A DNA stretch of 64,000 nt from a virus. A model generated the notes under the pieces. That model was not told where the DNA came from. It searched no databases and saw only the letters and a program-made list of their open reading frames with translations. The translations under genes and the position numbers were made by a program. Location of the stretch: the IMG/VR virus record IMGVR_UViG_3300039208_000624. One strand, given 5' to 3'. Positions 164 to 63,358 of this stretch are shown here, in pieces. The first letter of the stretch is position 1; the number at the start of each line of letters is the position of its first letter.

Positions 164-167
164 TTTC

Positions 168-335
168 TCAATCAGTAGTTCCCCGGACCTTAATCTTATC
201 GCCCTTTCTTCGTCGCTCATGCACATTTTCAGACTCCTCATCGCGGAGCCAGCATGGTCGATAGTTGACGTTTTTCAGACCTTGTCGTGCGGTAGCCGCA
301 CGACGTTTTTGCTCTTCCGCGAACTTTCGTTTCAT
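168..335 (-). CDS. Small basic hypothetical protein (55 aa)
   Basis: Not in the ORF track. MKRKFAEEQKRRAATARQGLKNVNYRPCWLRDEESENVHERRRKGDKIKVRGTTD; its ATG overlaps the upstream TGA (ATGA) and it fills the gap exactly. Confidence 0.55.
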   Translation of the reverse strand: MKRKFAEEQKRRAATARQGLKNVNYRPCWLRDEESENVHERRRKGDKIKVRGTTD

Positions 336-1060
336 GATAACTGCCTACCGCGTTGCATAATAAAAGTTTCCAGATCTTCTGGGGTGCCCATACCGAACAT
401 TTCGTCTACAAAGAAAGGTATCAGAGTACCTCCCGAGCGAATTAACTCGTTGTAGACAGGAGCAATATAGAACTCGCCGTTAGTACGAATATTCTTTTCG
501 ATCATACGATGAGCTGACCGCAAAAAATCTTCTGTCTTTCGGTAATAGTAGATGCCGCATGTAGCAATGTTGCTAATAGGCTTCTTTTCGGCCACCTCAA
601 CTACCGACTGTCCGTCCAATCTAACGAAGCTCCACTTAGGGTGTATAGCATTGAAAGCGAAAACAACGCCTTCTACAGAAGAGAAATTTCTTAGTAGATC
701 AAAGTTGAAGGTGCTGAACCTCACGTACTGATCTGAGTTAGCAATCAATAGCTCATCAAACGGATCGAGCACGTCTTCAGCAAGAAGTGCTGTACAAGCT
801 GCACCCTCAGTGACATCGCTCACCGGCGTTACGGTGATTCGACGATCGCCGACCACCTGCTGCAAAGTGCTATCCAAATCGTAACGATCGATGTGCTCCT
901 CCAGAGCCAAGAAATGGAAGCTGGCATCTTGAAATGGAAAATTCTCCACTACCCTTTGTATCATGGGCTTTCCCATAACATCAATCAATGGCTTAGGAAA
1001 AGTATATCCTTTTTCTTCGAAGCGGGAGCCTCGTCCTGCCATAGGAATGAGAATCTGCAT
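332..1060 (-). CDS. Sugar-phosphate nucleotidyltransferase (NTP_transferase family)
   Basis: N-terminal ILIPMAGRGSRF..GY..PKPLI signature; later EKKPIS..ATCGIYYY and NGEFYIAPVYN. Confidence 0.85.
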   Translation of the reverse strand: MQILIPMAGRGSRFEEKGYTFPKPLIDVMGKPMIQRVVENFPFQDASFHFLALEEHIDRYDLDSTLQQVVGDRRITVTPVSDVTEGAACTALLAEDVLDPFDELLIANSDQYVRFSTFNFDLLRNFSSVEGVVFAFNAIHPKWSFVRLDGQSVVEVAEKKPISNIATCGIYYYRKTEDFLRSAHRMIEKNIRTNGEFYIAPVYNELIRSGGTLIPFFVDEMFGMGTPEDLETFIMQRGRQLS

Positions 1061-1770
1061 TAGTAGCTCTCCATCGGGAATTTGTCCCAGATGTCGTTGT
1101 CCGCACGAACGATCTCTCCAAGACCATTCTTATTGGTATTATGCTCGCGAAACTTGAAATCGTCCGGGTTCTCATCAAGAAATTTTTGAATTGCTCCCTC
1201 GGTGTTAACTCCATATCCACGCGGAACATAGAAGTTCTTAGTGTCGTGAATAAAAAGACGCCCGCCTTCGCTCAATACATTGGCGTATTTACAGATCTCT
1301 CGATACGTGGTACCCGCACCACCCGCCTCTTTTCCCGCCACACCAATCCGCTCGGGATAGTTGTCATCATGATTGGTGTCGAGAAAAATGAAATCAAACT
1401 CTCCATCTACTTCATATTCCAAACTGTTCGCTTCTACAAAGTAGTGCTTTTCAAAATTATGCCCATGACCACAATCCTTTAAAAACTGTCTACATCTTTC
1501 GACTGTGGCAGCGGCAAGTGGGTCGATGTCTATGGAAATTAGCAAATCGCATCCATAGTAAGCACACAAAGCAATTAGGGTCTTAGTTGATTGACCAAAG
1601 AAGTCTGGCGGAACATGAGTATTGATTCGGCAAACCCCCAGCTCAAGCACCTTCTTGATGGGATATCCGCACACTTCATTCTGTCCAAAAGCGTCCCGAA
1701 AGACAAGCTCGTTCTTTGCAAAGTCCGTAAATGTCGGACGCATCTTTTTCAATACTTCAGAGAGTTCCAT
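1060..1770 (-). CDS. Class I SAM-dependent methyltransferase (Methyltransf_24-like)
   Basis: KVLELGV (motif I), LISIDID, EANSLE, FDFIFLDTNH, GGRLFIHD; GGAGGT RBS upstream. Confidence 0.75.
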   Translation of the reverse strand: MELSEVLKKMRPTFTDFAKNELVFRDAFGQNEVCGYPIKKVLELGVCRINTHVPPDFFGQSTKTLIALCAYYGCDLLISIDIDPLAAATVERCRQFLKDCGHGHNFEKHYFVEANSLEYEVDGEFDFIFLDTNHDDNYPERIGVAGKEAGGAGTTYREICKYANVLSEGGRLFIHDTKNFYVPRGYGVNTEGAIQKFLDENPDDFKFREHNTNKNGLGEIVRADNDIWDKFPMESY

Positions 1771-2675
1771 CCTGAAAGCACCTCCACTCCAAAAGGATAC
1801 TGAGTGACAACACCGGCCTCATTGGCAATATGACTACTCCTGTCATAAATAAGGCCATCAAATGGCTCAAAATGACTGTTGAAAAATCTCTTGCCAATAT
1901 GATCAAACGGAGATTCAATAATTGGACCTTCTATACCTTGATCAAGGTCATCTTGACGAGTTTCATTATAACACTCAATCTCATCGTTTGTGTACACATA
2001 ATGCTCATCTACATAGAATAGATGCATACGTTCAGCAAGTTGAGAGATATGATTCGACTGCAAGGCGTCGTAAGCGAAGTTAAATTTGTTACCAATCTGA
2101 CAACCAAAATATCCCGCAGCAACGAACTGATCTGCTATTCTCATTTCTCCATCATGATCAGAACTGAACTGCCAACTAATCTTGGCGAGTGCTTCGGTTT
2201 TGGTAAACCAGATAGGTGCTCTCATATGAGAGGGATGAGGATACTTAGCTCCTCCGTTAAAAATCTGGGTACCAACAAAACCAAGTAATTCGTGCTGCCG
2301 CAACATCGCTCTCGCTTGTCGTAACCAACTATTTCGCTTGAATATCACATCATCTGATACGAATGCGAGGTATTTGTAATCGCCCATGTACTTCTGGCCA
2401 TAATGGCGATAAGCACCGAACGCTCGGTTGGGTAAATTACCCTTGTTCTCTGTGATTGCGGTGGGCGGAATCCATTCTTTGCGAAGGTGTGCTTCGTTCA
2501 TATGGACCACTATAAGATCATGATCCATACCAGCCTCAGCTCTAATATAAGAAGGCCAGAAACAGGTGTTCTGTGCTGGCCCGGCTGCGACTACAATGAT
2601 TGCGGTATCATTCACCGAATATCTCTTTATGAAGCTTGCCGATAAACTCGGCTTCGTGGCCGCGACTTTTGCCAT
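1749..2675 (-). CDS. Putative GT-A fold glycosyltransferase
   Basis: DHDLIVVH, NRAFGAYR, YLAFVSDDVIF (DXD-like). The true start is probably GTG at 2615 (VNDTAIIVV), coupled to the upstream stop. Confidence 0.55.
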   Translation of the reverse strand: MAKVAATKPSLSASFIKRYSVNDTAIIVVAAGPAQNTCFWPSYIRAEAGMDHDLIVVHMNEAHLRKEWIPPTAITENKGNLPNRAFGAYRHYGQKYMGDYKYLAFVSDDVIFKRNSWLRQARAMLRQHELLGFVGTQIFNGGAKYPHPSHMRAPIWFTKTEALAKISWQFSSDHDGEMRIADQFVAAGYFGCQIGNKFNFAYDALQSNHISQLAERMHLFYVDEHYVYTNDEIECYNETRQDDLDQGIEGPIIESPFDHIGKRFFNSHFEPFDGLIYDRSSHIANEAGVVTQYPFGVEVLSGWNSLKY

Positions 2676-3588
2676 CTAACTGATAAAGAGTGTTGTACAT
2701 CGTATGAACGGCAAACCCATTACGAATAAACACTGCGTTCATATCGTGCTCCCGCATATAGTGATTCATCGGAACTTCGTCAAATGTATACGCCCATCCG
2801 CCAAGCTTATCCTTACCTACCCATCTGCGATCTTCGTCCTCGAAAATGGATTTCCACACCTCTGTGCGGATCAAAAAGAAGCTGTTGCAGAAATACGCAA
2901 TACTCATTGGGTCAAGCCTCATCCCTCCGCAACCACGAAACTGATCAACATGCTTTAAAACCATCTCATTAATGTAATACTGAGACGGCCCATGCATTCG
3001 AACGGGATGAATTCCTTTGACCGGAGTATTAAAGGCTCGCACCTTTTCCATGTAAGCTCGCCAATCCCATTCAGACGAATTGAGATCTTCGTAGTTAAAG
3101 TTCCATCTATTGGGATGTTTGAACTGTACAAAGCGGGAGTACAGTTCTTTAAGCTCGTCCTTATCAAGAAAATCCTCGGCGAACAAATCCACCGAGGGTA
3201 TTCCATTTGACAATAGAGGTAGGACCACAAAGTTGCTCGGATTTTGTAGGCAGTCGACGTTTTCGATCATATAATCCCAAACATGACCGTTTACAAAAAC
3301 GTCTTCATCAAGCTTTACCGAGTATTCTTCTGGCTGCTTGGTTGCCCAAGCTATCTTGTCGGTGTAATTCTTGGCACTCTTCTCTGCAAAATGCACTACC
3401 TCAACTTCCGCTCCCGCGTTCCGGAGCATCTTGCCCCAATTAGATTTCCATGGAGCAACATCATTGTTGACGAGAATATTGACCTTAACTTCCGAAAGAC
3501 GCTTGGCTTGTGCCAAGCTTTCGAAGGTCAGCCTATGACATTTTCCGTCACGACGATAGTGAAGATAATTAATTGCAATTTTTCGCAT
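2608..3588 (-). CDS. Putative GT-A fold glycosyltransferase
   Basis: KIAINYL N-terminal strand, YSVKLDEDVFV DXD motif, FCNSFFLIRTEVW, TFDEVPMN. Start moved to ATG 3588 on the basis of a GAGG RBS (ORF track 3600). Confidence 0.6.
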   Translation of the reverse strand: MRKIAINYLHYRRDGKCHRLTFESLAQAKRLSEVKVNILVNNDVAPWKSNWGKMLRNAGAEVEVVHFAEKSAKNYTDKIAWATKQPEEYSVKLDEDVFVNGHVWDYMIENVDCLQNPSNFVVLPLLSNGIPSVDLFAEDFLDKDELKELYSRFVQFKHPNRWNFNYEDLNSSEWDWRAYMEKVRAFNTPVKGIHPVRMHGPSQYYINEMVLKHVDQFRGCGGMRLDPMSIAYFCNSFFLIRTEVWKSIFEDEDRRWVGKDKLGGWAYTFDEVPMNHYMREHDMNAVFIRNGFAVHTMYNTLYQLDGKSRGHEAEFIGKLHKEIFGE

Positions 3589-3603
3589 AAGGAGCCTCAA
3601 CCA

Positions 3604-4230
3604 TTACAAGTGCTCCTTTATATTACACCAATTAACCTCTTCAGCGTTCTTCACACGCCATATTTTCGCACCTGTCTTGTTGGCCGCCTCGTATCCCTTG
3701 TCTGAATCTTCTACAATGAGACACTCTTGTGGAGTTCGACCTATTTCAACCATAGCAGTAACGTATGGTTCGGCGTGTGGTTTTGGATGCCTAACATCTT
3801 CATTAGTTACAACTGCATCGAAAAGCCCCCTTACTCCAGATTTATTCAGCATGATCTCAGTAGTCTCACGAATAGAGTTTGTTACACATGCAGTCAATAT
3901 ACCAGACTTCATAAGGCGAGTAAGCATTTCAATCTTAGACTCATCATTCTCAACTTTGTCGAGAAGTATCTCGATGGTCTTTTTCTGCTTAAGCGGTGGA
4001 ATGGCTTTAGATTGCTCGACCGTAATCCTTCCCTGACCTACCAAGATTTCCATTTTCTTGGATGTGGGAAGTCCATTGAACATACTGACGTGCTCTTCTT
4101 CATTAATACGAAATCCCGCTATCTCCTCGATAGCGTCATTCAAGGCATCCTTGTGCCAATCGCAAGCATCTACCAAAACGCCATCGAGATCAAAAAGAAC
4201 GGCTTTCACATTAAAGACAGGTTCTCCCAC
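3604..4230 (-). CDS. HAD-superfamily phosphatase (beta-PGM/CbbY-like)
   Basis: VLFDLDGVLVD motif I, CVTNS motif II, KPHAEPY motif III, LIVEDSDKG motif IV. Confidence 0.9.
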   Translation of the reverse strand: MGEPVFNVKAVLFDLDGVLVDACDWHKDALNDAIEEIAGFRINEEEHVSMFNGLPTSKKMEILVGQGRITVEQSKAIPPLKQKKTIEILLDKVENDESKIEMLTRLMKSGILTACVTNSIRETTEIMLNKSGVRGLFDAVVTNEDVRHPKPHAEPYVTAMVEIGRTPQECLIVEDSDKGYEAANKTGAKIWRVKNAEEVNWCNIKEHL

Positions 4231-4907
4231 GGTGCGTGCTCCTTTTTCTTCAACAAGAATGCGGAAGCATGAACATTACAAGCAAACGCATTCTCCCCGT
4301 ACTCCAAATACATACGGCGAGACCACTCAATATCCTCTGACTCGCCCCAAACCAAATCTTCATTGAGGGGCACCTTCTCAAGAACCTCCTTCTTAGCACA
4401 GAAAAAAGCTCCGGAGTAGTACTGCCATCTTTCAAATCCCCGAAGACCTGCTCTCATGCATCGAAATCCAAATCGTCCTTCAAGGTCGTCCTGCATATCA
4501 ACGCCAGCATCATGGCCAGCGGTGCACCAGAAACGAAACAGCCGGCCATTCGTGTTGTATATAGGAGTGACGCAGGACTTCCAATCATATCCAAAGTTTT
4601 TGAAGTCATTGCACCAATTACTACCTATAGTTACGTAATCGTGCATAAGACAAACATTTGGATGGGCGGCCATTTCGGCGACAATATTCTTCTTCTTGGT
4701 GATCCAGGCCGGCTTTACGGTTTCATCAAATTCAACTTCCAAAACTCTTCGCCTACCAAGATAACGTCCATCACGCTTGAATCCAACTATGATGATTTCA
4801 AACTCATCATCTGTTGTAAACTGGCTGTGAATATTTTGAACGATATCTTCAACTCGCTCCGGATTATTGCCATCCGTTATAATTCCAAAAGTCCAGCTAT
4901 TCTTCAT
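4206..4907 (-). CDS. GT2-like glycosyltransferase
   Basis: WTFGIIT, FEIIIVG, WITKKKN, VCLMHDYV, YYSGAFFCAK, WGESEDIEWS. Confidence 0.7.
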   Translation of the reverse strand: MKNSWTFGIITDGNNPERVEDIVQNIHSQFTTDDEFEIIIVGFKRDGRYLGRRRVLEVEFDETVKPAWITKKKNIVAEMAAHPNVCLMHDYVTIGSNWCNDFKNFGYDWKSCVTPIYNTNGRLFRFWCTAGHDAGVDMQDDLEGRFGFRCMRAGLRGFERWQYYSGAFFCAKKEVLEKVPLNEDLVWGESEDIEWSRRMYLEYGENAFACNVHASAFLLKKKEHAPWENLSLM

Positions 4908-5580
4908 CCGGCACCGCCTTACTCAATCGATAAATGATGTCGTCGTGAGCAGCACTCGGCGTCGAAATGCGTTGTACATTCAGATTGTCTGGCTGAAGAG
5001 ACAAAACGAATTTCATAAAATCAGATTTGTTGTAGGTGTTCCAGTAATAGCAAGCACCATGTTCATCTGGACCATGCCGAACAATGTTATCGGGCTTGTC
5101 AGTCAGAGGCTCAAAGAGGACGACATAAAGATCGCGTGCAGCCACCCGCCAAGCTTCACGGATAGCTACTTCGTACCCTTCAGGAAGATGCTCCAGTACA
5201 TGACGAAGAATAACAACATCGTGAGAGTTATCTGCCATGGGTAACTCTTCAACAAATGATTCTTGAACGCCAAAATTAACATAACCTTCATACCGCTCTT
5301 CAGCATTCTTAAGGAATCGAGACCCGCGATCAACTCCAAGGTAACTGAAGTTCATCGGATACAGCTCTTCGAATACCTCGAAATTGACACAGTTGCCACA
5401 AGCAAGATCGAGAATCGAAACCTCATGATCGTCCGGCCATTCGGTCGCCGCGACAAGTTGCACAAGACGTCGGCGACCAAAATTGTCCGTACCAACTCCC
5501 ACGTTTCTCATCAAATTTGCAACCTGCTCTTCGGTAAACGTGTCATGATTGTCTACCAACTCTTCCCAAGGCTTACTCAT
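4897..5580 (-). CDS. Class I SAM-dependent methyltransferase (Methyltransf_11-like)
   Basis: SILDLACGN, YLGVD, ELPMADNSHDVVILRHVLEHL, AIREAWRV. Confidence 0.9.
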   Translation of the reverse strand: MSKPWEELVDNHDTFTEEQVANLMRNVGVGTDNFGRRRLVQLVAATEWPDDHEVSILDLACGNCVNFEVFEELYPMNFSYLGVDRGSRFLKNAEERYEGYVNFGVQESFVEELPMADNSHDVVILRHVLEHLPEGYEVAIREAWRVAARDLYVVLFEPLTDKPDNIVRHGPDEHGACYYWNTYNKSDFMKFVLSLQPDNLNVQRISTPSAAHDDIIYRLSKAVPDEE

Positions 5581-5630
5581 CGCAAAAACTCCAACTTTTG
5601 TTCGGTAATCATCCAGAAAATTTTACTCAT

Positions 5631-7183: not shown

Positions 7184-7497
7184 AATTGTTCCAGTACGGC
7201 CATTGTACTTAGTCTACAAGCACTTATCCAAATCACCTCGCATCGATCTTTTCCTGCTGGATTGTCTGGATGCGGAACATATATGACCGCACCAAAATCT
7301 GGATCGGGAATTTGGCCAGGTAAATAAATGACGTATCCGATGTCCACGATTCCGTCGTATTCGCCCAACCATCTTATTCTTACTTTAGAGCCTGGATCTA
7401 AGTTACATTGCATGTTGTCAAAATTAGGCTCAAAATCTCCTTCTTTGCCTCCTCCAGCAATCTCAATGTCTTCGCGTATCTTTTCTATATCAAACAT
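7180..7497 (-). CDS. Hypothetical protein (105 aa)
   Basis: Coupled at both ends to its neighbours; no family recognised. Confidence 0.7.
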   Translation of the reverse strand: MFDIEKIREDIEIAGGGKEGDFEPNFDNMQCNLDPGSKVRIRWLGEYDGIVDIGYVIYLPGQIPDPDFGAVIYVPHPDNPAGKDRCEVIWISACRLSTMAVLEQL

Positions 7498-8569
7498 TGA
7501 TATGAGCCTCTCCCTCTCCCCTACCGGCCGGCGTCACTCTAATAAACTGAGCTTTGCGATGGAACTCTTCAAGATTACGAGCACCAACATAAGTAAAAGC
7601 CGAACGAATACCGCCCGCAAAATGACGAATGACTTCTCCGACCGGACCTTTGCAAGGGACTGAGGTGGACACACCTTCATGTGTTTTCCACTCGGACATT
7701 GATCCCATGAATTCTTCTTGAGCCTCGCGGGATGCCATCCCACGAAAGACCTTATGCTTTGTACCCTGATCAAGCATCCAGGCCGTATGGTCAGGATCAA
7801 TACCTCCATTATAGTCTGGATTACGAATAAGCCCTGCTCCGGGTTTAGTAACTACTGAACCCGGCGTTTCGTCGCATCCAGCAAGCTGACCGCCCAGCAT
7901 AATCGCATCAGCACCAGCAGCGAGAGCCTTCGCGGCGTCACCTGGATTTCGAATACCGCCATCAGCAATCAGGAACCTGTCGACTCGTCGACAGTTCATG
8001 ATAGCAGTTATCTGTGGAACGCCAACACCCGTATTAATTCGTGTGGTGCAGGCTGAGCCTGGACCGATACCGACCTTAATACCGTCAGCACCACACGAAG
8101 CAAGATAATCTGCCCCCGCTTCTGTAGCAACATTTCCCGCTATTACAACAATACCTTTTCTCAACTCTCTCTTAATCCACTTGATCATCTGCCCCACAGC
8201 CTTAGAATGGCCGTGTGCTACATCGACACAAATAATTCGTGCTCCAGCATCACTCAAAGCACCGGCTCTCTCTTTAGCACTCTCGCCAACACCAACAGAT
8301 ACACCGCACAAACCTGGATGCACTTCTTTGAAGTCCGCAACATTCTGCTCGATTGTATTGAATCGATGAAGAATACCGAGTGCCTTCTCATCATCCATAG
8401 CACGAGCCATACTGGGTCCAGTTATTGTATCCATATTGGAACTAATGATGGGAATATCAATAGCATAGTTACGCAAAGAAGTTTTAAGACTGACGTCTTG
8501 TCGGGATTCAATATCATTGTACCCCGGCATAAGATAGACATCGTCAAAAGTGATTGCTTGCTCAAACAT
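7490..8569 (-). CDS. IMP dehydrogenase / GMP reductase family enzyme (guaB/guaC family, no CBS domains; flap loop favours GMP reductase)
   Basis: [31 protein letters not shown], catalytic [49 protein letters not shown]. Confidence 0.92.
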
Positions 8570-9575
8570 TTGAGAACCTCGGTTTCAAGAGATTTTCTCT
8601 ACTCTGTCCAACTTCTATTGCCTCAGTAAAGCTATTGGTAATATGCTTCCAGGTTTTATTCTTAGCACCGGACATAGCAGCGAAACTTCTTATGTAAAGT
8701 TTAGAATCACGAGTATTCCAAAGCCTACAGAATGCTTCGGCTATGTCATCCGGAGAGTCTGTTCCAACTATCTCTCCGCTATACCCAGAAGAAACAAAGT
8801 CGGTAGTACCATACTTTGTACAAATTGGTATCGTGCCACACGCCATAGCCTCAATTACTGGCGTTGGGCAGCCTGCAAGCCGAGAAGCATCCAGATAAAC
8901 ATGTGCGTTTCGATAGCTCGCAGCAACACTGTTGCGGTTTTTCGTGCCATCATTCATGGGCATGAGATTAATTGGCACACCCTTCTTTTGAGCAGCACGA
9001 ATTCCAGCGAGAGCTACATCCACCCCACGCACCCAACCGCCCCGATTCCAAAAACAAACATTTAAGGAAGAGGGGTCATCCCAAATCCTAACATCGTCAT
9101 TATTATGGAATATTGTTGGGTCATATCCCGGTGAAACAAGAGTCTGAATGACATTTCGATTATACATCTGCTCCATGATAATTTGCACATATGATGAAGT
9201 GCAAAAAATCTTCAGTGGCAACGAATACGAATCAATTGCTCTCTGTCTCCACGCAGCATCGTTATCATTGAACACGCCTTCATTAGTGTGAACCCAATAA
9301 AAACGATCTGAAGCGTTTTCGTGATCTGCCACGGCTTTTGCCGTAGGCGAAAAAGGGCTTACCAGAACACCATCATAATTCCGAAACTCCTCGCTGTTTG
9401 CTGGGTAGATTGGAAAGAAGTTAGGAATCCATGTGCAATCCTTGTCGCCATTGATATCAACAAATGCACGCACCTCATGTCCGCGGGTATGCAGTTCATT
9501 GAGAACTTCGATAATACAGGCGATGCCGCCACTGATCCAGCCTTCAAGAGCAGATGTATAGATGGCCAGCTTCAT
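8562..9575 (-). CDS. GT4-like (GT-B) glycosyltransferase
   Basis: SGG..CI.EVLNEL..RGHEV, PGYD..IF, GCPTPVIEAMACGTIPICT. Confidence 0.85.
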   Translation of the reverse strand: MKLAIYTSALEGWISGGIACIIEVLNELHTRGHEVRAFVDINGDKDCTWIPNFFPIYPANSEEFRNYDGVLVSPFSPTAKAVADHENASDRFYWVHTNEGVFNDNDAAWRQRAIDSYSLPLKIFCTSSYVQIIMEQMYNRNVIQTLVSPGYDPTIFHNNDDVRIWDDPSSLNVCFWNRGGWVRGVDVALAGIRAAQKKGVPINLMPMNDGTKNRNSVAASYRNAHVYLDASRLAGCPTPVIEAMACGTIPICTKYGTTDFVSSGYSGEIVGTDSPDDIAEAFCRLWNTRDSKLYIRSFAAMSGAKNKTWKHITNSFTEAIEVGQSRENLLKPRFSNV

Positions 9576-9988
9576 TCGTCGGACTCTCCCTGTAAATACT
9601 TTTTGGCGTCAGTCCACTTTCCGTCAATATCAAATCCCCATCGACGATAGCGACGCCCACGAAAAACAAGCGTGGTGGTGCCCCGATCAACCTTCACAAT
9701 AGAGTGAAAATGTTTGGCAAAACGCTTTTTCAAGTTAAGCCATCCGACTTTTTCATAACCCTTTTTGTTAAGTTCTGTGTATCCTCCCCACAAAACAAAA
9801 GTCCAGAAATTGAACGGGTGATCGTGAAGATAAACGTTTGGGTCCGGATTATGCATGCGATGCAAAAGCAGTGCAAACCACGGAGTCTCAATGATGGTAT
9901 ATCTTGTAAAATACTTCCGTTCGCCTCTACGAGCCAACTCTTTCTTGTGAAGAAGTCGCCATCGGTGTGTATTTGGATAAAGATTCAT
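9572..9988 (-). CDS. Cupin-like conserved phage protein (HDHP motif)
   Basis: LHDHPFNFWTFVLWGGYTE...FHSI...TLVFRGR...WGF pattern seen in many phage hypothetical proteins. Confidence 0.65.
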   Translation of the reverse strand: MNLYPNTHRWRLLHKKELARRGERKYFTRYTIIETPWFALLLHRMHNPDPNVYLHDHPFNFWTFVLWGGYTELNKKGYEKVGWLNLKKRFAKHFHSIVKVDRGTTTLVFRGRRYRRWGFDIDGKWTDAKKYLQGESDE

Positions 9989-10269
9989 GTAATTAATACC
10001 GCAGTTGAAGCAGAGCCAGCACCATCACTAACATCAACTTCTAAAATACCAGTGCACCCATTAGGGATTTTGATGGTTAGCGTAGCTTGATTGCCAGTTT
10101 GAACAGTTGTAATCGGCAAATCTTTATTGCCAATATAAGCACGAGAACAAAGAATTCCCGTGACGCAAGTGACGTCAAGACACACAGTAGTGCCTGCCGG
10201 AGCCGACACGGGGCCAGTAACACTTAGGGTGGTAAGGAAAATGACGGCAGCGATAATAGAACTAAGCAT
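9985..10269 (-). CDS. Small secreted beta-rich hypothetical protein (94 aa)
   Basis: Hydrophobic N-terminus MLSSIIAAVIFLTTLSV followed by alternating beta-strand segments. Confidence 0.6.
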   Translation of the reverse strand: MLSSIIAAVIFLTTLSVTGPVSAPAGTTVCLDVTCVTGILCSRAYIGNKDLPITTVQTGNQATLTIKIPNGCTGILEVDVSDGAGSASTAVLIT

Positions 10270-10271
10270 AT

Positions 10272-11402
10272 TTATTTCTCCAAAACAGCTTTATAACAAT
10301 TAACAAGTCCAGTAGTCACGCAGGAAGCTTCAAAATGTCTCATTGCTCGACGACGAGCAAGAATCGAAAACTCATCACGAAGTTCGGCGTTTGCCAACAG
10401 ATTCCAAAGAATCTCTGCATAATTATCATGGTGTGAAAAAGGAGCTACAAACCCCGCATCGCCAATGATTTCAGATTGCCCATTGTAAATCTGAGAAACA
10501 TGGCTGATTACAGGAACTCCATGCATCATCGCTTCTTGAATATTGCAAGGACAACATTCGCCGTCATGACGAGCATGAGCGTAAACATCAAGAGCAGTAT
10601 AGAACCGAGACAACTCAAAGTCGTCAATAATCGGGTCCATAAAGATGACTCTTTCACATCCAAGCTCTGAAGCAGTTTCACGCCACCTTTTACATCCATT
10701 GACCACCAGATAATACGCATTCGGAAAATGGTCCTGTGTGTTTGCCCAAGCTTTTAATGCAATAGGATCAAAGTTGTCAGGACGCCCAACACGTCCCACA
10801 AAGATCGACTCCTTCTTAGTAAGCTTGAAGGCATACCTTTCCTGTAAATCGCCAATTAATTCACGTTTTGCGTAAAAGTGTGCTTCTGGCCCAGGAATAT
10901 CAGGACGATAAGATGGCCTATCTGTAGGATTGAAAATCATAGGGCCATGTGGGTTGCCTAATCCTGTTGCACGATTTCTGATGTGTTCAGAGATGTAGAT
11001 GTTTATATCCACAATCCCTGTTATGTCTGCATTACCGAAGATATTCGTTTCCACCACTTTACATCCATCAGGAATCATTCCAGGCACAAGCGGCCACTCC
11101 GGATACCCAGATCGATGAACATGAAGGATGTCCGGCTTAATACCAGCAAGTACTTCAGCAAAATTGCTGGACAGAGGATAGTAGGGCGGACGAGCTGACG
11201 GAGCATGTTCGTGTTGATAAGGGACGACTCTGTCGTTCCCAAGGATGTCACGCACAATTTCAAGACGATCATCCGTATCGCCTTCTCGGTACATAAGAAA
11301 AGGCTCAACATCATTTTTTTCTAAAAGGTATTTGCAGAAAAGTTGTGCAACTCTATCAGTACCAGCATATCCAATTGTTTTCGAATGATGAACCACCCTC
11401 AT
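10272..11402 (-). CDS. GT4-like (GT-B) glycosyltransferase
   Basis: GYAGTDRVA, VGRVGRPD, DVYAHAR.DGE...NIQEAMMHGVPVISH. Confidence 0.88.
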   Translation of the reverse strand: MRVVHHSKTIGYAGTDRVAQLFCKYLLEKNDVEPFLMYREGDTDDRLEIVRDILGNDRVVPYQHEHAPSARPPYYPLSSNFAEVLAGIKPDILHVHRSGYPEWPLVPGMIPDGCKVVETNIFGNADITGIVDINIYISEHIRNRATGLGNPHGPMIFNPTDRPSYRPDIPGPEAHFYAKRELIGDLQERYAFKLTKKESIFVGRVGRPDNFDPIALKAWANTQDHFPNAYYLVVNGCKRWRETASELGCERVIFMDPIIDDFELSRFYTALDVYAHARHDGECCPCNIQEAMMHGVPVISHVSQIYNGQSEIIGDAGFVAPFSHHDNYAEILWNLLANAELRDEFSILARRRAMRHFEASCVTTGLVNCYKAVLEK

Positions 11403-11809: not shown

Positions 11810-12134
11810 TCTTCAGATTTTTCTCACGCATTGCTTCGTCAACACGCTTTTGAATTAATTCCTTTTCGCGAGCCAATTCGCCAGACCGACGAGCACACTC
11901 TCGCTTGTGCCAAACCTTGAATTTATCAGACTCACGCATTCTCTTGAAGGCTTGAATTTTATTTCTTGCCTGAGACCGCTCTTCTGTAGCCTCGCCGACT
12001 GCACCCGAATCCCGATGAGTGATGCGAATACCCGTGAATTTCTTATTCTTGTGTTGTCCGCCTGGACCAGAACCGCGTATAGGCTTTATATCAAGATCGG
12101 CCTTGGTAACAGAGAAAAGTAATTCCTTAGCCAC
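11781..12134 (-). CDS. Stand-alone peptide chain release factor-like protein (RF-1 catalytic domain with GGQ)
   Basis: RGSGPGGQHKNK...IRITH.DSGA.GEATEERSQARNK..AF. Start reassigned to GTG 12134 behind a GAGGAG RBS (ORF track 12170). Confidence 0.88.
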   Translation of the reverse strand: MAKELLFSVTKADLDIKPIRGSGPGGQHKNKKFTGIRITHRDSGAVGEATEERSQARNKIQAFKRMRESDKFKVWHKRECARRSGELAREKELIQKRVDEAMREKNLKIEYYDPDKD

Positions 12135-13179: not shown

Positions 13180-13183
13180 AATG

Positions 13184-13672
13184 CTACATCACCATCACGT
13201 TGGTTGCTGCTGTAAACTGACATCCGCCAGAGAGAGTAGCGTCGATTACAACGGCTTGAAACCCCAACTCCACACCCGCCGACAACGGAGGAAGATTGAG
13301 GAATACAGGGGCCGTAGGATTTACTGGCCCAAACTGGTTGTAAGAATAAATAGAAATGGTGCCGGGAAATGTAAGGTTGATGTTGAGAAGTCCGCAGGGA
13401 GTTCCAGAAAAATCAGGCACGACCGGACCAAGTGACACGAAAGTCGTCAAAGACGAATTCGGAGTTCCTTGGGCAAAAAAGAGTGTTGAACTGACTTGAT
13501 TGGCTGGAATTGTAACCGAGTGTGGATAAACAATAGGGCCTGCGGGGAGCGGAAACGGAAACATACGAGCAGTGCCGATCACATCTGGCTGAAAACCGGG
13601 CATGGCTTGAGCTGAAGACGTTCCGCTGAAACAGAGAGTAGCAATGATGGCGAGAAATGCAAAAATACGCAT
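13184..13672 (-). CDS. Secreted beta-sandwich protein (signal peptide)
   Basis: MRIFAFLAIIATLCFSGTSSAQA signal peptide from ATG 13672 (ORF track 13753); C-terminal LGFQAVVID...T motif shared with 15212..15706. Confidence 0.65.
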   Translation of the reverse strand: MRIFAFLAIIATLCFSGTSSAQAMPGFQPDVIGTARMFPFPLPAGPIVYPHSVTIPANQVSSTLFFAQGTPNSSLTTFVSLGPVVPDFSGTPCGLLNINLTFPGTISIYSYNQFGPVNPTAPVFLNLPPLSAGVELGFQAVVIDATLSGGCQFTAATNVMVM

Positions 13673-13749
13673 AGTTATTTGTAATCCTTGTTGATTGTTT
13701 CTGCCTCTCCCGTTTCCCGTCTGCATAGTACCGCAGGCGTAGCAAAAAG

Positions 13750-14082
13750 TCAACCTTTAGGAATGTATTTTTGCTGCTCTGACTCCGGTAGGTCTTCAAA
13801 AGGGGTCATGTCCTCTGGCAAAAATTGCTCCCAATAAGCCGTCAAGCCGAGAAGCTTTTGAAGATTTTCTCGCAAAGTTTGATTGCCCTTAGTAAGCCCA
13901 AAGATAGAATCTATGCCTTGGGCGTGAATTCTTTTGCTTGCCTGAGCACTATAAGCATTAAGAGCATCAGAAAGACGAGTGCTTTCTACAGAAATCTGTG
14001 CCGCAGCTTGATCAAACGCCTCTTCCTTTAGTCTCTCAATCTCAGCAATTAAATCGTCGCGAGACATATCTTGGTATGACAT
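13750..14082 (-). CDS. Hypothetical protein (110 aa, helical)
   Basis: ORF fills the gap in the operon; N-terminal coiled-coil-like segment. Confidence 0.65.
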   Translation of the reverse strand: MSYQDMSRDDLIAEIERLKEEAFDQAAAQISVESTRLSDALNAYSAQASKRIHAQGIDSIFGLTKGNQTLRENLQKLLGLTAYWEQFLPEDMTPFEDLPESEQQKYIPKG

Positions 14083-14083
14083 A

Positions 14084-15202
14084 CTAACAAGATCCTACTA
14101 TATTACAACTTCCAAAATTTGCGAGACCTGCTTCATCCAGATCTACGTCAATGACTTCAGTAGGAGGACCTCCGTGAGAAACAGTCATACCATTATGATA
14201 CATTGCCATCCGAGGCTGGGCCTGACCAGTTTGACACAACCATATGTTGCCGTATGGTTCGCCAGCAAGAGCTTCACGATACGGGGCAACATCACGCCAA
14301 GTAGCTTGTCCTGGCATTTTGACAAGTCTCTCATCGCGATAATCAAACATAGGATGAGACTTAATAGCTTCTGGATGCTCCCCGTCAAAAAGTACATAAG
14401 GTTCTGTGCCATCAAACCAATCTTTTATCTTTTGATCGAAGGCTTTGTTAGCACCGCCGTGCTTGGCAAGCTCTTTATCATAATACTCTTGCTTGCCACG
14501 CATTACTTCATCCATATTCGCACGAGCATAACCGTAATGGAAGATGAAGAAGTTATCAAGCATAACTCTTCGAGGTTGATATTCTGGCGAGAAGTAGGTA
14601 CAGCGGCCAGCAGGATCAGTCACCACAGGATGAGTATGATACTGCATGCCCGCTGTAAATTTGAAAATTCGTTGATGCTGCGGCTGCCACTCAGGACCAG
14701 GAAACGCAATATGCTGAAAATCACGGTAGAAGTGAAGAAACAGCGGCACGAACTCAGTAGCATGAGGGTTCAGATCGATTGCTACCCGCAACCTTCTAAT
14801 GTCTTCGGGTTTATAAAGCTCGTCAGCATCATTGATGATCACCCAGTCACCCGGCATACACATCTGCAAAAACGTGTTCTTCATTTCCTCAAGATCTTTC
14901 CATGGCTTATTGATCTTGATGAACATGATCTTTTTGTCAGGATCTTTCTCTTTACGGAACCTCTCTACTATTTCAATTGTATCATCCGTAGAGTGCCCAT
15001 CATCTGTCGAATTGGGGCGATTTTCGACGGCCCCTTCAATCACAATGATCTGATCTACTTCGTCGTAAATCGACCCAAGAACGATTTCCGCAAACTCCGA
15101 CTCATTATGCATTTGTATACACTGAATAAGACGAGGCGGCTTGTTAACGCGTTCGGCAATCGAGGCCATTTGGGGAACATAAACTGGTTGTGGTTGATTC
15201 AT
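14084..15202 (-). CDS. GT2-like glycosyltransferase
   Basis: MHNESEF, DQIIVIEG, STDDT.EI, DWVIINDADELY, FFIFHYGY. Confidence 0.85.
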   Translation of the reverse strand: MNQPQPVYVPQMASIAERVNKPPRLIQCIQMHNESEFAEIVLGSIYDEVDQIIVIEGAVENRPNSTDDGHSTDDTIEIVERFRKEKDPDKKIMFIKINKPWKDLEEMKNTFLQMCMPGDWVIINDADELYKPEDIRRLRVAIDLNPHATEFVPLFLHFYRDFQHIAFPGPEWQPQHQRIFKFTAGMQYHTHPVVTDPAGRCTYFSPEYQPRRVMLDNFFIFHYGYARANMDEVMRGKQEYYDKELAKHGGANKAFDQKIKDWFDGTEPYVLFDGEHPEAIKSHPMFDYRDERLVKMPGQATWRDVAPYREALAGEPYGNIWLCQTGQAQPRMAMYHNGMTVSHGGPPTEVIDVDLDEAGLANFGSCNIVGSC

Positions 15203-15211
15203 TTTTGACTC

Positions 15212-15706
15212 TTAGGCATTTGGACTTACGGGCGTCATGATCTGAACCGGATTAGTCAGCTTGTATCCAAACGGAAGCTGTGACGAGATCAAAACTGCCT
15301 GAATTGTTAAGTCGAAATTGAACGGAAGAAACGAAACGTCAAACACGGTCACGTCAACTCCGCATAACGGACAGATCGGACCGACTAAATTATCGTATCC
15401 AATCATAATGCTGATGCAAGGAAACATACTAAGTACGCCTCCATTGAACTGCATACCGTTGAAATTGGCCGGTGCCGGCATAACTCCAAGATAGTAGCCG
15501 GCAAAAGAAGGTCCTTGCACAATCACTGACAAAGGCTGGTCAGGGTGATGAATGTAAAAAGTAGGGCTCGACGAACTCCCCGGATTAATCAAAACTGAAG
15601 TGCTATGATCAAGACTAAGATTAGCCTCCGGCGAAGGCGGCTCAAATTGACCAAAAGAGATGTTTGTCAAAATGAATAGAAGCGTTGCGAAGATTGTAGA
15701 CTTCAT
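15212..15706 (-). CDS. Secreted beta-sandwich protein (signal peptide)
   Basis: MKSTIFATLLFILTNISFGQ signal peptide; C-terminal LTIQAVLIS...LTNP motif. Confidence 0.65.
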   Translation of the reverse strand: MKSTIFATLLFILTNISFGQFEPPSPEANLSLDHSTSVLINPGSSSSPTFYIHHPDQPLSVIVQGPSFAGYYLGVMPAPANFNGMQFNGGVLSMFPCISIMIGYDNLVGPICPLCGVDVTVFDVSFLPFNFDLTIQAVLISSQLPFGYKLTNPVQIMTPVSPNA

Positions 15707-16950
15707 TGAGTTGCCTCCTTATTGATAATGATATCGCCAGTCAACTTCCATGATTCAAAAGCTTCAGCAATGATTGCGGCAATCTGTCCAGAAATCGCAC
15801 GGTAATCAAAAGCTTCAGAAACCTTGGCCGCCTTCTTTTGACGATTCAAAACAGACTCCCACTGCTCCCTGTTGCCTTCGGCAAACTCTTTCTTTTCCGC
15901 CTGCTGCTTTAACAAATGATAGTTTCGCATCATCATTGACATCTCGGCAGTAGACGGCTCAAACCATTGACATGTTCCATTAAAAAGTACGGGATCAGGG
16001 TGAGGCATGTCGTAACAAAGTGCCATTGATCCACCATAGACAATGGCTGATTCGTTGGTAACGAAATGCTCCATGCCGCCCCAAGGATGAGAAATTGTCA
16101 CATTGCCATGAGCCATGGCATCAAACACTGGAATTCCCCATCCCTCTCCACGAGAAGAACAGACATATACATCGCCCCTCTTATGAAGCCCATGAATCAT
16201 ATCGTCCGACACCGTACCAAGGATTGGAAGAACCGGAGGACGCTTTTCTACTGGAATACGAGCACCCTGCCAAACTCTATCAATGAATTGACGTACCGTA
16301 GTCTTCTCTTGTTCTAAATTCCTATTTGCCATACCAATGTATGTTTTTAAAACAAGCAAGACTTCATCGGGCCTATCAGCAAAAGCCGCATAGTAGCTTC
16401 GCAAAAGAGAATCGATGCCCTTCTTGGCGGAAAGCTGACAAATATTGTAGAACACTGTGCGTCCCTCGGCTTTCTTCCCGAGGTCGTACGGATCATATTC
16501 CTTGTCAAAAACATCCTTGTCGCAAGGGACAGGCATGTTGATGATCGGTTTTGTCACTCCACTACGTAACAGAGATTCGACATTCATGCGGCATGGAACG
16601 GCAATGGCATCGAAATTGTTGGCGTGTTGTGCCCAAGCACCGGGGATTCTGTCTGTTTCGAAAAACGAATACAGTATATTCATGCACCCTGGAACGGGCT
16701 GGGCTTCGGCGTTGGCTGTGGTCATTTGAATGACCGCGTCAACTCCTTTGGTGATGCTCTTTTCCATCAGCTTCTTGTGCCACTCGTCCGGCACAAACTC
16801 TTGCCCTTCATCAAGCTGATCGTAAATCAGCGGCCTGGCAACAAGATCGATATCCGAACAGTCCAAAGCACGCAAGAAATGTCGTGATGCATGCCCAAAG
16901 CCGCTAAAGTCATTGATAGGTCCACAAAATAGTAACTTCATTCCACCCAA
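15703..16950 (-). CDS. GT4-like (GT-B) glycosyltransferase
   Basis: SGFGHASR, FETDRIP..W...AN.FDAI.VP, KKGIDSLL, DVYVCSSRGEGWGIPVFDAMAHG. Confidence 0.9.
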   Translation of the reverse strand: MGGMKLLFCGPINDFSGFGHASRHFLRALDCSDIDLVARPLIYDQLDEGQEFVPDEWHKKLMEKSITKGVDAVIQMTTANAEAQPVPGCMNILYSFFETDRIPGAWAQHANNFDAIAVPCRMNVESLLRSGVTKPIINMPVPCDKDVFDKEYDPYDLGKKAEGRTVFYNICQLSAKKGIDSLLRSYYAAFADRPDEVLLVLKTYIGMANRNLEQEKTTVRQFIDRVWQGARIPVEKRPPVLPILGTVSDDMIHGLHKRGDVYVCSSRGEGWGIPVFDAMAHGNVTISHPWGGMEHFVTNESAIVYGGSMALCYDMPHPDPVLFNGTCQWFEPSTAEMSMMMRNYHLLKQQAEKKEFAEGNREQWESVLNRQKKAAKVSEAFDYRAISGQIAAIIAEAFESWKLTGDIIINKEATQ

Positions 16951-18755
16951 TCCTCAATAACGCCGACTTTCTTAGAAGACCCAGTGCCTTCAACTTCTGC
17001 CCTAATACGTTGACGCTGATTACCGGCGTCAGACTGCTGGTTGCCAAGAGCGACAAAGTGATTGAGTAATTGTTCTCTGGAAACTCCTTGACTTAGGTGC
17101 GACTTCCACATCTCGGCACCCTGCGGATCAATACGAGGATACTTGAGTACTTCAACGTAAAGCCACTCAAGATATTGATCATCGTTCAAGCCTTCCGGAA
17201 CATCTTTAGTTTCGATGGGCTCTGTTACCTCAATAGGGGAATCCCAAGTTACTTCTCTGGATTTCGGTGTAACATGATCAAAAACAAACTCCCACTGTCG
17301 CCAGATACGATCCCAATCATAGTTCGCTTCAACACATTCGCGTGCCTCTTTAGACATTCTCTTACGCTTTATCTCGTTCGAGAGCATCTCAAACATTTGA
17401 TCCGCAAGAATCTCCACATCTGGCAAAGCACGCTTACATGAAGTTTCTGGTTCGTAGTAGTAACGGCCAACAGGTGTTACGTCTCCACCCTTATGACAAG
17501 AATAGTTCTCTTCAGTAACTCCAGCTTTATCAAAATGAAGATAGTCCTTCGGGAACCTGCCCTTCTCACGCATCGCGGTATAATCAGGGACAAGCGTTGG
17601 AATACCGCAAGCCTTAGCTTCTTGGATGGGCATTCCGTCCCCCTCACAAATCGAACACTGCACATACACATCAAACAAATTGTACAGCTTGGCAAGCTCT
17701 TCACGAGAATATCCACCGCCAGTTGTTGGAGCGGTAGCAGCACGTTCTCCGCAGTGCGGACACGGCATTAAAATTGCCGGCGAATCTCCCACTCGTTCAA
17801 TAGGACGATTAAAGAGGCTCATAGCCCAAGCAATATGTTTTTCTCCACACTTGTGACACATCATGCTTTGGAGAATACTATCCTTGATACCCTTATAATG
17901 ATAAGGCATCCAATTGTAAGAATTCAGCCTCATGATATGGCGTGGATAATCATACGAGTGCTGATTATCAGGCCAGGTAGTGTGCAAAATCAACACTGCT
18001 TTATTCGCAATCGTCTCTCCTTCGTATTTTTTCTTCATACGAGAGAATGCGTCAATCAAATCAGGATACAGCTTACGACTTTGATTACGCATAACTGTCC
18101 CAATTACCGGGATATCATGATTCAGTCCAAAGTATTCGTGCACCTCTTTCTCATCCATTGGCTTGAATGTTTCAAGATCTACACCCGGTCGCATGGGAGT
18201 CGGAAATACTTTAGCTTTCACGCTTTGACGCTTCAGTGTAGAAATGCCGTAGTCTGAATATGACAAAACAAGATCGGCGTTTTCATAAGTGGCCATCCAC
18301 TCTTCCTTCTGCGGCTCGGCGTCCACAGTGGGCATAACAATCCACTTAAACCAAGGACGAAAGCATGAAACCTCCTGAAATTCCAACATCCACCAGTCAC
18401 GAATATCAACGACGATGTCGGGCTTGAAGTCTGCGACTACTCGATCAAAAAGCCATTCGCCAAACTGGTTGGTGTTCTGACCCATTGCCCTGGGACGAGG
18501 AGATGGCTGACTAAACACGGCCCATTCATGAGGGTTACTGTTGGCATCGCCAACAGGTTTGGCTGCATAGAATTTCCATCTGCCTTGAATGAAAGATTCT
18601 ACACGAGGATCATCTTGCGAAGCATAAGAACCAAGCTCCGCAATCTCGTATTTGCCTGTCTCAACAAGTCGAGGTAAAAGTTCTCGGTAGATAGTTGAAA
18701 AGCCCGTGCTCAAAAAACTGGCTTCGCCAACAAACAGGATTCTTTTCTTGATCAC
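16938..18755 (-). CDS. GT4-like glycosyltransferase with Zn-ribbon insert and C-terminal DUF4214-like domain
   Basis: STGFS, VMRNQSRKLYPDLI, DVYVQCSICEGDGMPIQEAKACGIP; insert CHKC...CPHC; tail WLYVEVLKYPRIDPQGAEMWKSHLSQGVSREQLLNHF. Confidence 0.88.
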   Translation of the reverse strand: MIKKRILFVGEASFLSTGFSTIYRELLPRLVETGKYEIAELGSYASQDDPRVESFIQGRWKFYAAKPVGDANSNPHEWAVFSQPSPRPRAMGQNTNQFGEWLFDRVVADFKPDIVVDIRDWWMLEFQEVSCFRPWFKWIVMPTVDAEPQKEEWMATYENADLVLSYSDYGISTLKRQSVKAKVFPTPMRPGVDLETFKPMDEKEVHEYFGLNHDIPVIGTVMRNQSRKLYPDLIDAFSRMKKKYEGETIANKAVLILHTTWPDNQHSYDYPRHIMRLNSYNWMPYHYKGIKDSILQSMMCHKCGEKHIAWAMSLFNRPIERVGDSPAILMPCPHCGERAATAPTTGGGYSREELAKLYNLFDVYVQCSICEGDGMPIQEAKACGIPTLVPDYTAMREKGRFPKDYLHFDKAGVTEENYSCHKGGDVTPVGRYYYEPETSCKRALPDVEILADQMFEMLSNEIKRKRMSKEARECVEANYDWDRIWRQWEFVFDHVTPKSREVTWDSPIEVTEPIETKDVPEGLNDDQYLEWLYVEVLKYPRIDPQGAEMWKSHLSQGVSREQLLNHFVALGNQQSDAGNQRQRIRAEVEGTGSSKKVGVIEDWVE

Positions 18756-63347: not shown

Positions 63348-63358
63348 GATATGTCTCC

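Follow-up and report, generated by a model that had tools for sequence, protein, structure and literature searches.

Chloroviruses and mimivirus glycosylate autonomously, using virus-encoded GMD and GMER, soluble glycosyltransferases (GTs) and methyltransferases. Among tailed phages, O-glycosylation of the capsid and tail tube has been described for mycobacteriophages (Freeman 2023, as cited in PMC12619734), and the Moraphages, with genomes of >200 kb, have four core GT orthogroups (PMC12619734). Phage DNA can also carry glycans: a 2026 paper describes poly-arabinosyl modifications of up to tri-arabinosyl and shows that the arabosyl-5-hydroxycytosine pathway, too, begins with a ThyA homologue (PMC13326640). 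Reports of large GT sets in virulent aquatic phages go back to 2005, but no such set has an assigned target: the cyanomyovirus P-SSM2 has 24 putative lipopolysaccharide (LPS) genes (PMC1079782), and S-SCSM2R has 13 GTs among 22 genes, perhaps the most in any marine phage (PMC12801897). Here we describe a glycosylation island with a comparable number of GTs in a large aquatic phage that is uncultured, the IMG/VR virus record IMGVR_UViG_3300039208_000624, analysed as a stretch of 64,000 nucleotides (the window) in which genes are named below by their lowest coordinate.

The island is a block of at least 22 kb and 31 genes, among them 12 GTs, three or four methyltransferases and three sugar-nucleotide enzymes (Table 1). 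An earlier note on the window had delimited it at 332-18755 with about 11 GTs; the gene coordinates stood, but these were not the right limits, as the block continues for about 4 kb beyond the left window edge (L001). The assembly of this virus is 67.8 kb (about 37% complete by CheckV) and reaches 4.8 kb past that edge; window and assembly differ at three positions, and window positions 63018-64000 run 983 bp past the assembly end, so that the sequence scanned for this virus, window plus left extension, came to 68.8 kb. All 11 GTs proposed for the window were recovered, eight by Pfam, two by AlphaFold2 (AF2) models searched with Foldseek, and one by ESM Atlas structure. The six GT-B genes all scored above the Pfam gathering cut-offs, and the five GT-A genes comprise two found by PF00535, the two AF2 cases and gene 4206, the weakest, which is the ESM Atlas case. 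The proposed nucleotidyltransferase and HAD phosphatase likewise matched NTP_transferase and HAD_2 above cut-off, while of the two S-adenosylmethionine (SAM) methyltransferases listed in the window, 4897-5580 is firm and 1060-1770 stayed below threshold. Given three to four methyltransferases and 12 GTs, O-methylation of a long or branched glycan was a reasonable reading.

Every sizeable open reading frame (ORF) of the region lies on the minus strand. There are 26 gene junctions between the DnaE gene, which forms the upstream boundary of the island, and gene 332; at 19 of them the neighbours overlap or abut, and no gap exceeds 50 nt, in agreement with the proposed translational coupling downstream of the replisome genes. 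Such near-universal tight overlap suggests co-expression. The window also encodes a primase, DnaB, a UvsX/RecA-like recombinase and an exonuclease.

Genes for export, initiation, lysogeny and DNA hydroxylation are missing. A Kyte-Doolittle scan of the 68.8 kb found no gene with more than one hydrophobic, transmembrane-like segment; all 12 GTs are free of transmembrane segments, and no ORF of a complete relative (G003, 147.9 kb) has three or more predicted ones. Since neither sequence has a polytopic ORF, Wzx, Wzy, WecA-type, ABC-permease, Gtr-type and synthase-type proteins are ruled out. No initiating transferase of the Bac_transf family (PF02397) was found in this contig and four relatives (G000-G004), and control genomes did score; the same five records have no tyrosine integrase (PF00589). 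The absence of a Wzx/Wzy/ABC exporter and of an initiating transferase, first noted for the window, therefore holds in the 68.8 kb and in the complete relative. Two candidate identities were rejected: a Wzx/Wzy- or ABC-dependent lipid-linked polysaccharide locus, there being no initiating transferase, flippase, polymerase or ABC permease, and a conventional serotype-conversion locus, there being no integrase and no membrane Gtr- or Wzy-type protein. This contig and the complete relative also have no homologue of the ThyA family (PF00303) and no DNA C5-methyltransferase (PF00145); for TET/JBP (PF12851) no match rose above threshold, one relative giving a sub-threshold match of 12 bits. G003 encodes an ordinary ThyX, and all 12 GTs are acidic (isoelectric points 5.0-6.5). 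Taken together, the missing membrane, integrase, ThyA, C5-methyltransferase and TET/JBP genes disfavour serotype conversion and the known routes of DNA glycosylation, and the complete relative leaves as options an acceptor in the cytoplasm or host carriers that the phage hijacks. Where the earlier note had named virion proteins or DNA as the cytoplasmic acceptor, the DNA half is unlikely, its known prerequisites (ThyA, C5-methyltransferase and TET/JBP genes) being missing, and the case for the virion half is circumstantial. Its statement that the product is probably not a lipid-linked host surface polysaccharide agrees with the absence of phage export genes, but a host-envelope product keeps a minor share of the probability: soluble members of GT2 and GT4 also assemble glycans linked to lipid carriers of the host, so such a product is compatible with the missing export genes.

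The island is a lineage trait: adjoining DnaE is a core of conserved synteny that comprises about seven GTs together with GMD and Fcl, while the distal cassette is mosaic. Its most conserved gene, 16938, has homologues at 60-67% identity in 19 IMG/VR contigs of up to 170 kb. All 19 have DnaE, exonuclease, primase and helicase upstream, and beside DnaE they retain homologues of 16938, 15703, 14084, 12127, 10272, the GT2 of the left extension and the IMPDH-like gene, often together with 6329. Between DnaE and the first GT, the 76-aa ORF has homologues in 18 of the 19 loci and the 115-aa ORF in 9 of 19 (26-40% identity). The complete relative G003, whose genome of 147,927 bp has terminal repeats, runs collinear with the window. 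Between 75.4 and 94.2 kb lies its island, with 10 GTs, three methyltransferases, Fcl and GMD, after which come an FAD oxidoreductase, a class II ribonucleotide reductase and ThyX. G003 has a second GT-B/GT2 pair at 19.6-22.2 kb (L034:1614-2558 and L034:3386-4204), immediately upstream of the large terminase, and the matching position in G001, G002 and G004 gives equivalent Pfam matches; in the phage studied here, that region falls outside the window. As for the distal part, G001 keeps the order found here (6329, 5631, methyltransferase, 4206, HAD, nucleotidyltransferase ... Fcl) but is missing the 2608/1749/1060 cassette, which here lies between the HAD and nucleotidyltransferase genes. Homologues of 1749 and 2608 occur alongside the core GT on other long contigs. 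This mosaic distal part fits diversifying selection on an exposed glycan.

Among 50,697 deposited phage genomes, megablast of the island gave no match, and tblastn of the two best-conserved GTs (16938 and 14084) found no homologue; the major capsid protein bears a distant likeness to that of Bacillus phage G (24% identical). Relatives of the core GT also stand beside DnaE in metagenome-assembled genome (MAG) bins of Hydrogenophaga (158 kb, 64% identity), Balneolaceae (39%) and Omnitrophota (33%) (L031-L033), so the linkage of DnaE and GT predates this lineage; these three unrelated phyla point to no consistent host. We also observed, in G003 at 102938-103699 and 104938-105708, two Gly/Ser-rich, charge-poor proteins of about 255 aa with SG repeats, which follow ThyX at a distance from the structural module. 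They may be fibre-like or further candidate acceptors.

The product of gene 16938 has an undescribed architecture. The two glutamates of its EX7E motif (E371/E379) and the four cysteines of a CxxC...CxxC insert (C300, C303, C332 and C335) are invariant in 28 homologues; its matches to DUF4214 (22.4 bits, cut-off 23.2) and to a Lar-type zinc ribbon (23.5 bits, cut-off 28.6) are sub-threshold, and there is a weak profile match to chlorovirus B736L. More than 2900 metagenomic homologues were found. Some are interrupted by inteins, in part with LAGLIDADG domains, at two invariant sites, one following RNQS226 and the other falling precisely at C370|E371 within the EX7E motif, and insertion at invariant sites fits strong purifying selection on the gene. 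To our knowledge, inteins within a glycosyltransferase are unusual. Inteins were seen in homologues P0051, P0054, P0074, P0084, P0101 and P0105, stretching some to 946-981 aa. Free-standing LAGLIDADG genes sit at differing island positions among relatives (L001:4270-5055 here, G003 86547-87185 and L029:13061-13696), and together with the inteins of DnaE and the GT they suggest intense selfish-element traffic in the region. As for the remaining GT-B genes, 10272-11402 aligns with PimA in the PDB (E 2e-5), and 8562-9575 has no homologue among the relatives examined.

Three of the GT-A genes fall outside the reach of ordinary sequence searches. No Pfam match of the GT2 clan rose above cut-off for 1749 or 2608 (E<0.01), the best being a 13.8-bit match of 1749 to Glyco_tranf_2_5; PHROGs and Pfam down to E 10 gave no family for 1749, 2608, 4206 or most small ORFs; and hhalign comparisons of the 2608 and 4206 family profiles with the island GT2, the 4206 sequence or the 1749 family were not significant. 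Structure prediction alone resolved 1749 and 2608. For both predicted structures, all of the top 50 Foldseek matches in the PDB are GT-A folds (probability 0.99-1.00), nearly all of them glycosyltransferases; TM-scores of merely 0.35-0.5 mean that there is no close solved relative. The leading matches of the 1749 model are chondroitin synthase, the fucosyltransferase WrtF, GnT-I, BoGT6a and SpsA, and its SDD motif is well conserved in 36 aligned sequences of 56 homologues collected (D88 invariant, S87 and D89 ≥90%). The 2608 model matches the GT domains of LH3 and COLGALT1, hyaluronan synthases, GalNAc-T2 and UGGT; D94 and D96 of its DED motif are invariant (187 homologues collected), and its matches in BFVD are all GT-A, the nearest viral ones being GT domains of Mimiviridae, including one fusion with DUF4214. 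As modelled, 1749 and 2608 are thus GT-A enzymes by fold, outside any described sequence family. Gene 4206 belongs to a family with 916 representative homologues (the one in G001 is 41% identical), its profile is weakly similar to a Leptospira glycosyltransferase (PDB 6p61, E 9e-4), and because only 2 of 46 homologues match PF00535 in a Pfam scan it is the least secure of the eleven window GTs. A metagenomic protein of 561 aa (P0293) appears to be a natural fusion of the 4206 family, as its N-terminal half, with the 2608 family, which suggests that the two kinds of GT-A enzyme may act together. An identical 2608 protein is also present on a 92,854-bp contig.

What the sequences show is the enzyme inventory, its operon-like packing behind DnaE, a core conserved across the lineage and a lack of genes for membrane proteins, initiation, lysogeny and DNA hydroxylation; the donors, the step order and, above all, the acceptor are inferred. 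The island would encode a glycan assembly line that is independent of carrier-lipid export machinery. GDP-6-deoxyhexose would be supplied by the phage through GMD and the Fcl-like synthase, and a second nucleoside diphosphate (NDP)-sugar could come from the HAD-type mutase or phosphatase and the nucleotidyltransferase. Twelve soluble GT-A and GT-B enzymes would then work in the cytoplasm, attaching one sugar after another, with O-methylation by three or four SAM methyltransferases, and the strain-variable distal cassette would alter the outer sugars. The acceptors would be the phage's own outer tail and fibre proteins, modified before or during assembly to give the virion a glycan coat. We give this placement on virion proteins, chiefly those of the outer tail and fibres, a probability of about 45%. 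It is based on the lack of carrier-lipid machinery, the GT pair that heads the structural module of G003, the diversification of the cassette, the precedents in other viruses and a Ser-Gly skew: the motif SG[VILFM] is 3- to 9-fold enriched over shuffles in several structural proteins (31-47 and 55-57.5 kb) and near expectation in 40 non-structural ones, and [PA]SG plus a hydrophobic residue was counted 25 times among structural proteins but not once among those 40.

Several points weigh against placing the glycan on the virion. The phage is uncultured, and its acceptor is read from the genes. The island is co-oriented and contiguous with the replication genes, and six TTAGTGTA candidate late-promoter motifs flank structural genes alone, with none in the island. 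Fibre or beta-helix architecture may by itself account for the Ser-Gly motif. In these Pfam families, GT2 and GT4 enzymes normally use lipid-linked acceptors at the inner membrane, and three small proteins with signal-peptide-like N-termini hint at a link to the envelope. Membrane components could also lie in the part of the genome outside the assembly, though the complete relative has none.

The leading rival is a remodelling of the host envelope, in which a lipid-linked glycan of the host (O-antigen, capsule, LPS core or general O-glycan) would be lengthened or substituted by the phage GTs at the cytoplasmic face of the inner membrane. They would depend on the host for an initiating transferase, for the undecaprenyl carrier and for a flippase or ABC exporter, and the outcome would be to block superinfection or keep progeny from adsorbing to debris. 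O-antigen and capsule loci usually draw on this repertoire of GT2, GT4, GMD/Fcl and methyltransferases, the same proposal has been made for the 24 'LPS' genes of P-SSM2 (PMC1079782) and the 13 GTs of S-SCSM2R (PMC12801897), the layout would group the island with early or middle replication genes, and the three secreted-looking proteins stand between core GTs. We nevertheless consider envelope remodelling unlikely, if a serious contender: the initiating transferase, flippase, polymerase and ABC permease are missing from the contig and the complete relative, the lack of an integrase leaves no lysogen to protect, and host flippases would have to accept a foreign glycan. A core conserved like the replisome and invaded by inteins would also be odd for an accessory host-range trait, and an experimental demonstration in a virulent phage is not yet on record. 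Quite improbable, by our estimate, is a division of labour without a single pathway, the conserved core being directed at one target while the mosaic distal GTs, methyltransferases and sugar-activating genes were gained independently, as modules for others. The divide is sharp (44-67% identity for the core in all relatives, against patchy accessory genes), unrelated passengers lie in the block (RF-1, IMPDH-like, cupin, homing endonucleases) and G003 has additional GTs elsewhere; yet nearly all junctions overlap tightly, the accessory genes move as ordered cassettes beside the core, and a 4206-like and a 2608-like enzyme are joined in P0293.

Mycobacterial methylmannose polysaccharides offer a model for a product that has no protein, lipid or DNA acceptor at all, such as a cytoplasmic or released methylated oligo- or polysaccharide or a glycosylated metabolite. 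All enzymes being soluble, methyltransferases being interspersed with GTs and the weak NCBIfam match of 4897-5580 to a mycofactocin oligosaccharide methyltransferase would suit such a product; its benefit to a phage is not known, however, cassette diversification is more typical of exposed surface glycans, and a primer-forming or polymerising synthase was not recognised, so that we rate a free product as having only a slight chance. Least probable, and to our mind very unlikely, is DNA hypermodification, in which the GTs would decorate bases against restriction in the manner of the glucosyl-hydroxymethylcytosine (hmC) of T4 or the arabinosyl-5-hydroxycytosine (5hoC) of RB69 and DLP3. The island does lie directly downstream of DnaE, primase, helicase and exonuclease, with which it may be co-transcribed, and the core GT has a zinc ribbon and, in some relatives, inteins, which are usual in DNA-metabolism genes. 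Missing, however, is the ThyA-family hydroxy(methyl)ase that is the entry point for glycosylation of hmC, hydroxymethyluracil (hmU) and 5hoC (PMC13326640), as are a C5-methyltransferase and a TET/JBP match above threshold; ThyX in G003 is ordinary and the GTs are all acidic. Twelve GTs with O-methyltransferases and a GDP-fucose pathway would also go far beyond the tri-arabinosyl maximum (PMC13326640). The virion reading could be carried further: aquatic phages of about 150-180 kb might possess a giant-virus-style factory as conserved as the replisome, in which about seven GTs, among them the GT4 with Cys4 ribbon and DUF4214 whose active site has been invaded by inteins, lay a core glycan from GDP-sugars on Ser-Gly sites of tail and fibre proteins and swappable cassettes of GT-A, methyltransferase and sugar-activating genes give 'virion serotypes' that differ between strains. 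On balance we regard this fuller picture as doubtful.

The other island genes add detail on sugar activation and cargo. Gene 332-1060 has NCBIfam matches to the N-terminal domains of GlmU, RmlA and GalU, and its 60% homologue in G001 adjoins the HAD gene. The probable methyltransferase 1060-1770 has no detectable similarity to the Methyltransf_24 protein of the left extension. Three genes inside the block, encoding the IMPDH-like, RF-1-domain and cupin-like proteins, are non-glycan passengers. For the IMPDH-like gene, NCBIfam is undecided between IMPDH and GuaC; identity is about 50% in most relatives, about 31% in three and 52% in G003 (84454-85521), and, speculatively, it may tune the guanine-nucleotide pool for GDP-sugars. 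The RF-1-domain gene has no counterpart in the relatives examined and may be a passenger for ribosome rescue or anti-defence.

The small proteins 13184-13753, 15212-15706 and 9985-10269, sited between core GT genes, have 4-9% charged residues; the two larger, secreted-looking ones have no relatives in IMG/VR and no significant similarity to each other. Two of the three have a Gln just past the probable point of cleavage (SSA|Q, FG|Q), which recalls the 'Q-rule' of Bacteroidota and may hint at the host phylum. Scans of the island for sigma-70 promoters and terminators gave matches at chance level only. The sole strong terminator-like structure is a 10-bp GC-rich hairpin with a T-run at window positions 283-305, in the 90-nt gap between genes 332-1060 and 2-241 at the low-coordinate edge.

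Table 1. Genes of the glycosylation island and its borders. Plain coordinates refer to the window; those with the prefix L001 refer to the left extension.
Feature	Coordinates	Strand	Evidence and remarks
Truncated NUDIX gene	L001
Free-standing LAGLIDADG homing endonuclease	L001:4270-5055
GT2, twelfth GT	L001:3426-4298		49 bits
Fcl-like GDP-L-fucose synthase	L001:2480-3433		NCBIfam E 1e-72
Methyltransf_24 methyltransferase	L001		Clear Pfam match
Unknown 358-aa protein, start	2..241, exits window	-	Beyond it in L001: Methyltransf_24, 155-aa ORF, Fcl-like, GT2, LAGLIDADG endonuclease, NUDIX
Sugar-1-phosphate nucleotidylyltransferase, 242 aa	332..1060	-	NTP_transferase, 24.7 bits (cut-off 21.2)
Probable methyltransferase (weak call), 236 aa	1060..1770	-	Methyltransf_24, 22 bits (cut-off 26.3)
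GT-A-fold GT, 288 aa, family without Pfam model	1749..2615	-	AF2 pLDDT 95.6
GT-A-fold GT, 326 aa, virus-rich family without Pfam model	2608..3588	-	AF2 pLDDT 92.3
HAD-IA, beta-phosphoglucomutase-family hydrolase or mutase, 208 aa	3604..4230	-	HAD_2, 101 bits; NCBIfam PGMB-YQAB-SF E 5e-28
GT-A-like, 233 aa, WGxGED-type motif	4206..4907	-	ESM Atlas TM 0.74-0.75 to clusters 100% PF00535
Class I SAM methyltransferase, 227 aa	4897..5580	-	Methyltransf_11, 49.5 bits; relatives 36-44% identical
GT-A (GT2), 236 aa	5631..6341	-	PF00535, 64 bits; relatives 41-47% identical
GT-B-type, 284 aa	6329..7183	-	Glyco_trans_1_2, 44.5 bits; relatives 36-44% identical
ORF, 105 aa	7180..7497	-	No family
IMPDH/GMP-reductase-family enzyme without CBS domain	7490..8569	-	Pfam IMPDH, 320 bits
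Accessory GT-B, 337 aa	8562..9575	-	Glycos_transf_1, 41.1 bits
Cupin-like protein, 138 aa	9572..9988	-	PHROG 4786 ('cysteine dioxygenase'), E 6e-27; no Pfam/NCBIfam match
Small charge-poor protein, 94 aa, hydrophobic N-terminus	9985..10269	-
Core GT-B, 376 aa, distantly PimA-like	10272..11402	-	Glycos_transf_1, 47.8 bits; relatives 49-53% identical
ORF, 136 aa	11399..11809	-	No significant family
RF-1-domain (ArfB/PrfH-like) peptidyl-tRNA hydrolase, 129 aa	11781..12170	-	Pfam RF-1, 62 bits; NCBIfam prfH, ArfB
Core GT-B, 350 aa	12127..13179	-	Glyco_trans_1_4, 31.9 bits; relatives 44-48% identical
Small charge-poor protein, signal-peptide-like N-terminus	13184..13753	-	4% charged; one hydrophobic segment
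ORF, 110 aa	13750..14082	-	No significant family
Core GT-A (GT2), 372 aa	14084..15202	-	PF00535, 29.4 bits; relatives 60-67% identical
Small charge-poor protein, 164 aa, signal-peptide-like N-terminus	15212..15706	-	6% charged; no Pfam/PHROG match
Core GT-B, 415 aa	15703..16950	-	Glycos_transf_1, 33.4 bits; relatives 51-56% identical
Core GT-B, GT4-type, 605 aa, Cys4 zinc-ribbon insert, C-terminal DUF4214	16938..18755	-	Glycos_transf_1, 40.2 bits (cut-off 26.4)
Two small conserved ORFs, 115 and 76 aa, between DnaE and first GT	18755..19325	-	No family
DnaE-type DNA polymerase III alpha with intein	19326..23402	-	Pfam DNA_pol3_alpha, PHP, finger, Intein_splicing

If the glycan is indeed carried by virions, glycan coats would reach from mycobacteriophages to abundant environmental phages, and this would point to phage surfaces diversifying through their glycans. 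Several of the enzymes have no Pfam family, and the set would offer new tools for glycoengineering. What sets the locus apart, and makes it a cleaner case than most large GT sets of virulent aquatic phages, is that it is the syntenic core of an uncultured lineage, abutting DnaE, that its best-conserved GT combines an undescribed architecture with invasion by inteins, and that a complete genome shows the system to be all-soluble.

Compared with known systems, temperate-phage serotype conversion (Gtr, O-acetyltransferase, Wzy-type) shares the use of sugar-modifying genes, but here there is no integrase and no GtrA/B/C-like, Wzy-like or other polytopic membrane protein. DNA glycosylation systems (the alpha/beta-GTs of T4, RB69/DLP3 and the methyltransferase-TET-GT, or MT-TET-GT, type) share GTs of GT-B fold that accompany replication and nucleotide genes, whereas the island is without base-hydroxylating enzymes and has far more GTs as well as O-methyltransferases. 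The cyanomyovirus clusters resemble it in belonging to virulent aquatic phages and in their similar number of GTs and NDP-sugar enzymes; those phages are T4-like, however, and their clusters are strain-specific (present in P-SSM2, not in P-SSM4), unlike the lineage-wide syntenic core described here. Mycobacteriophages are, likewise, tailed phages whose own GTs act in the cytoplasm on proteins of capsid and tail, but these GTs number one to a few and lie in or next to the structural operon, as against 12 beside the replisome here, together with sugar-nucleotide genes. Chloroviruses (PBCV-1) and mimivirus are eukaryotic giant viruses with multidomain GTs, in contrast to the single-domain enzymes of a tailed phage in an operon behind DnaE, and the likeness to them is functional, no orthology having been shown. 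Their glycans are made in the cytoplasm on capsid or fibril proteins, while the phage system is known from its genes. Still, with soluble GT-A and GT-B enzymes, SAM methyltransferases, a GDP-6-deoxyhexose pathway and neither lipid carrier nor flippase common to both sides, the chlorovirus and mimivirus machineries are, by analogy, the nearest worked-out functional counterparts of this island.

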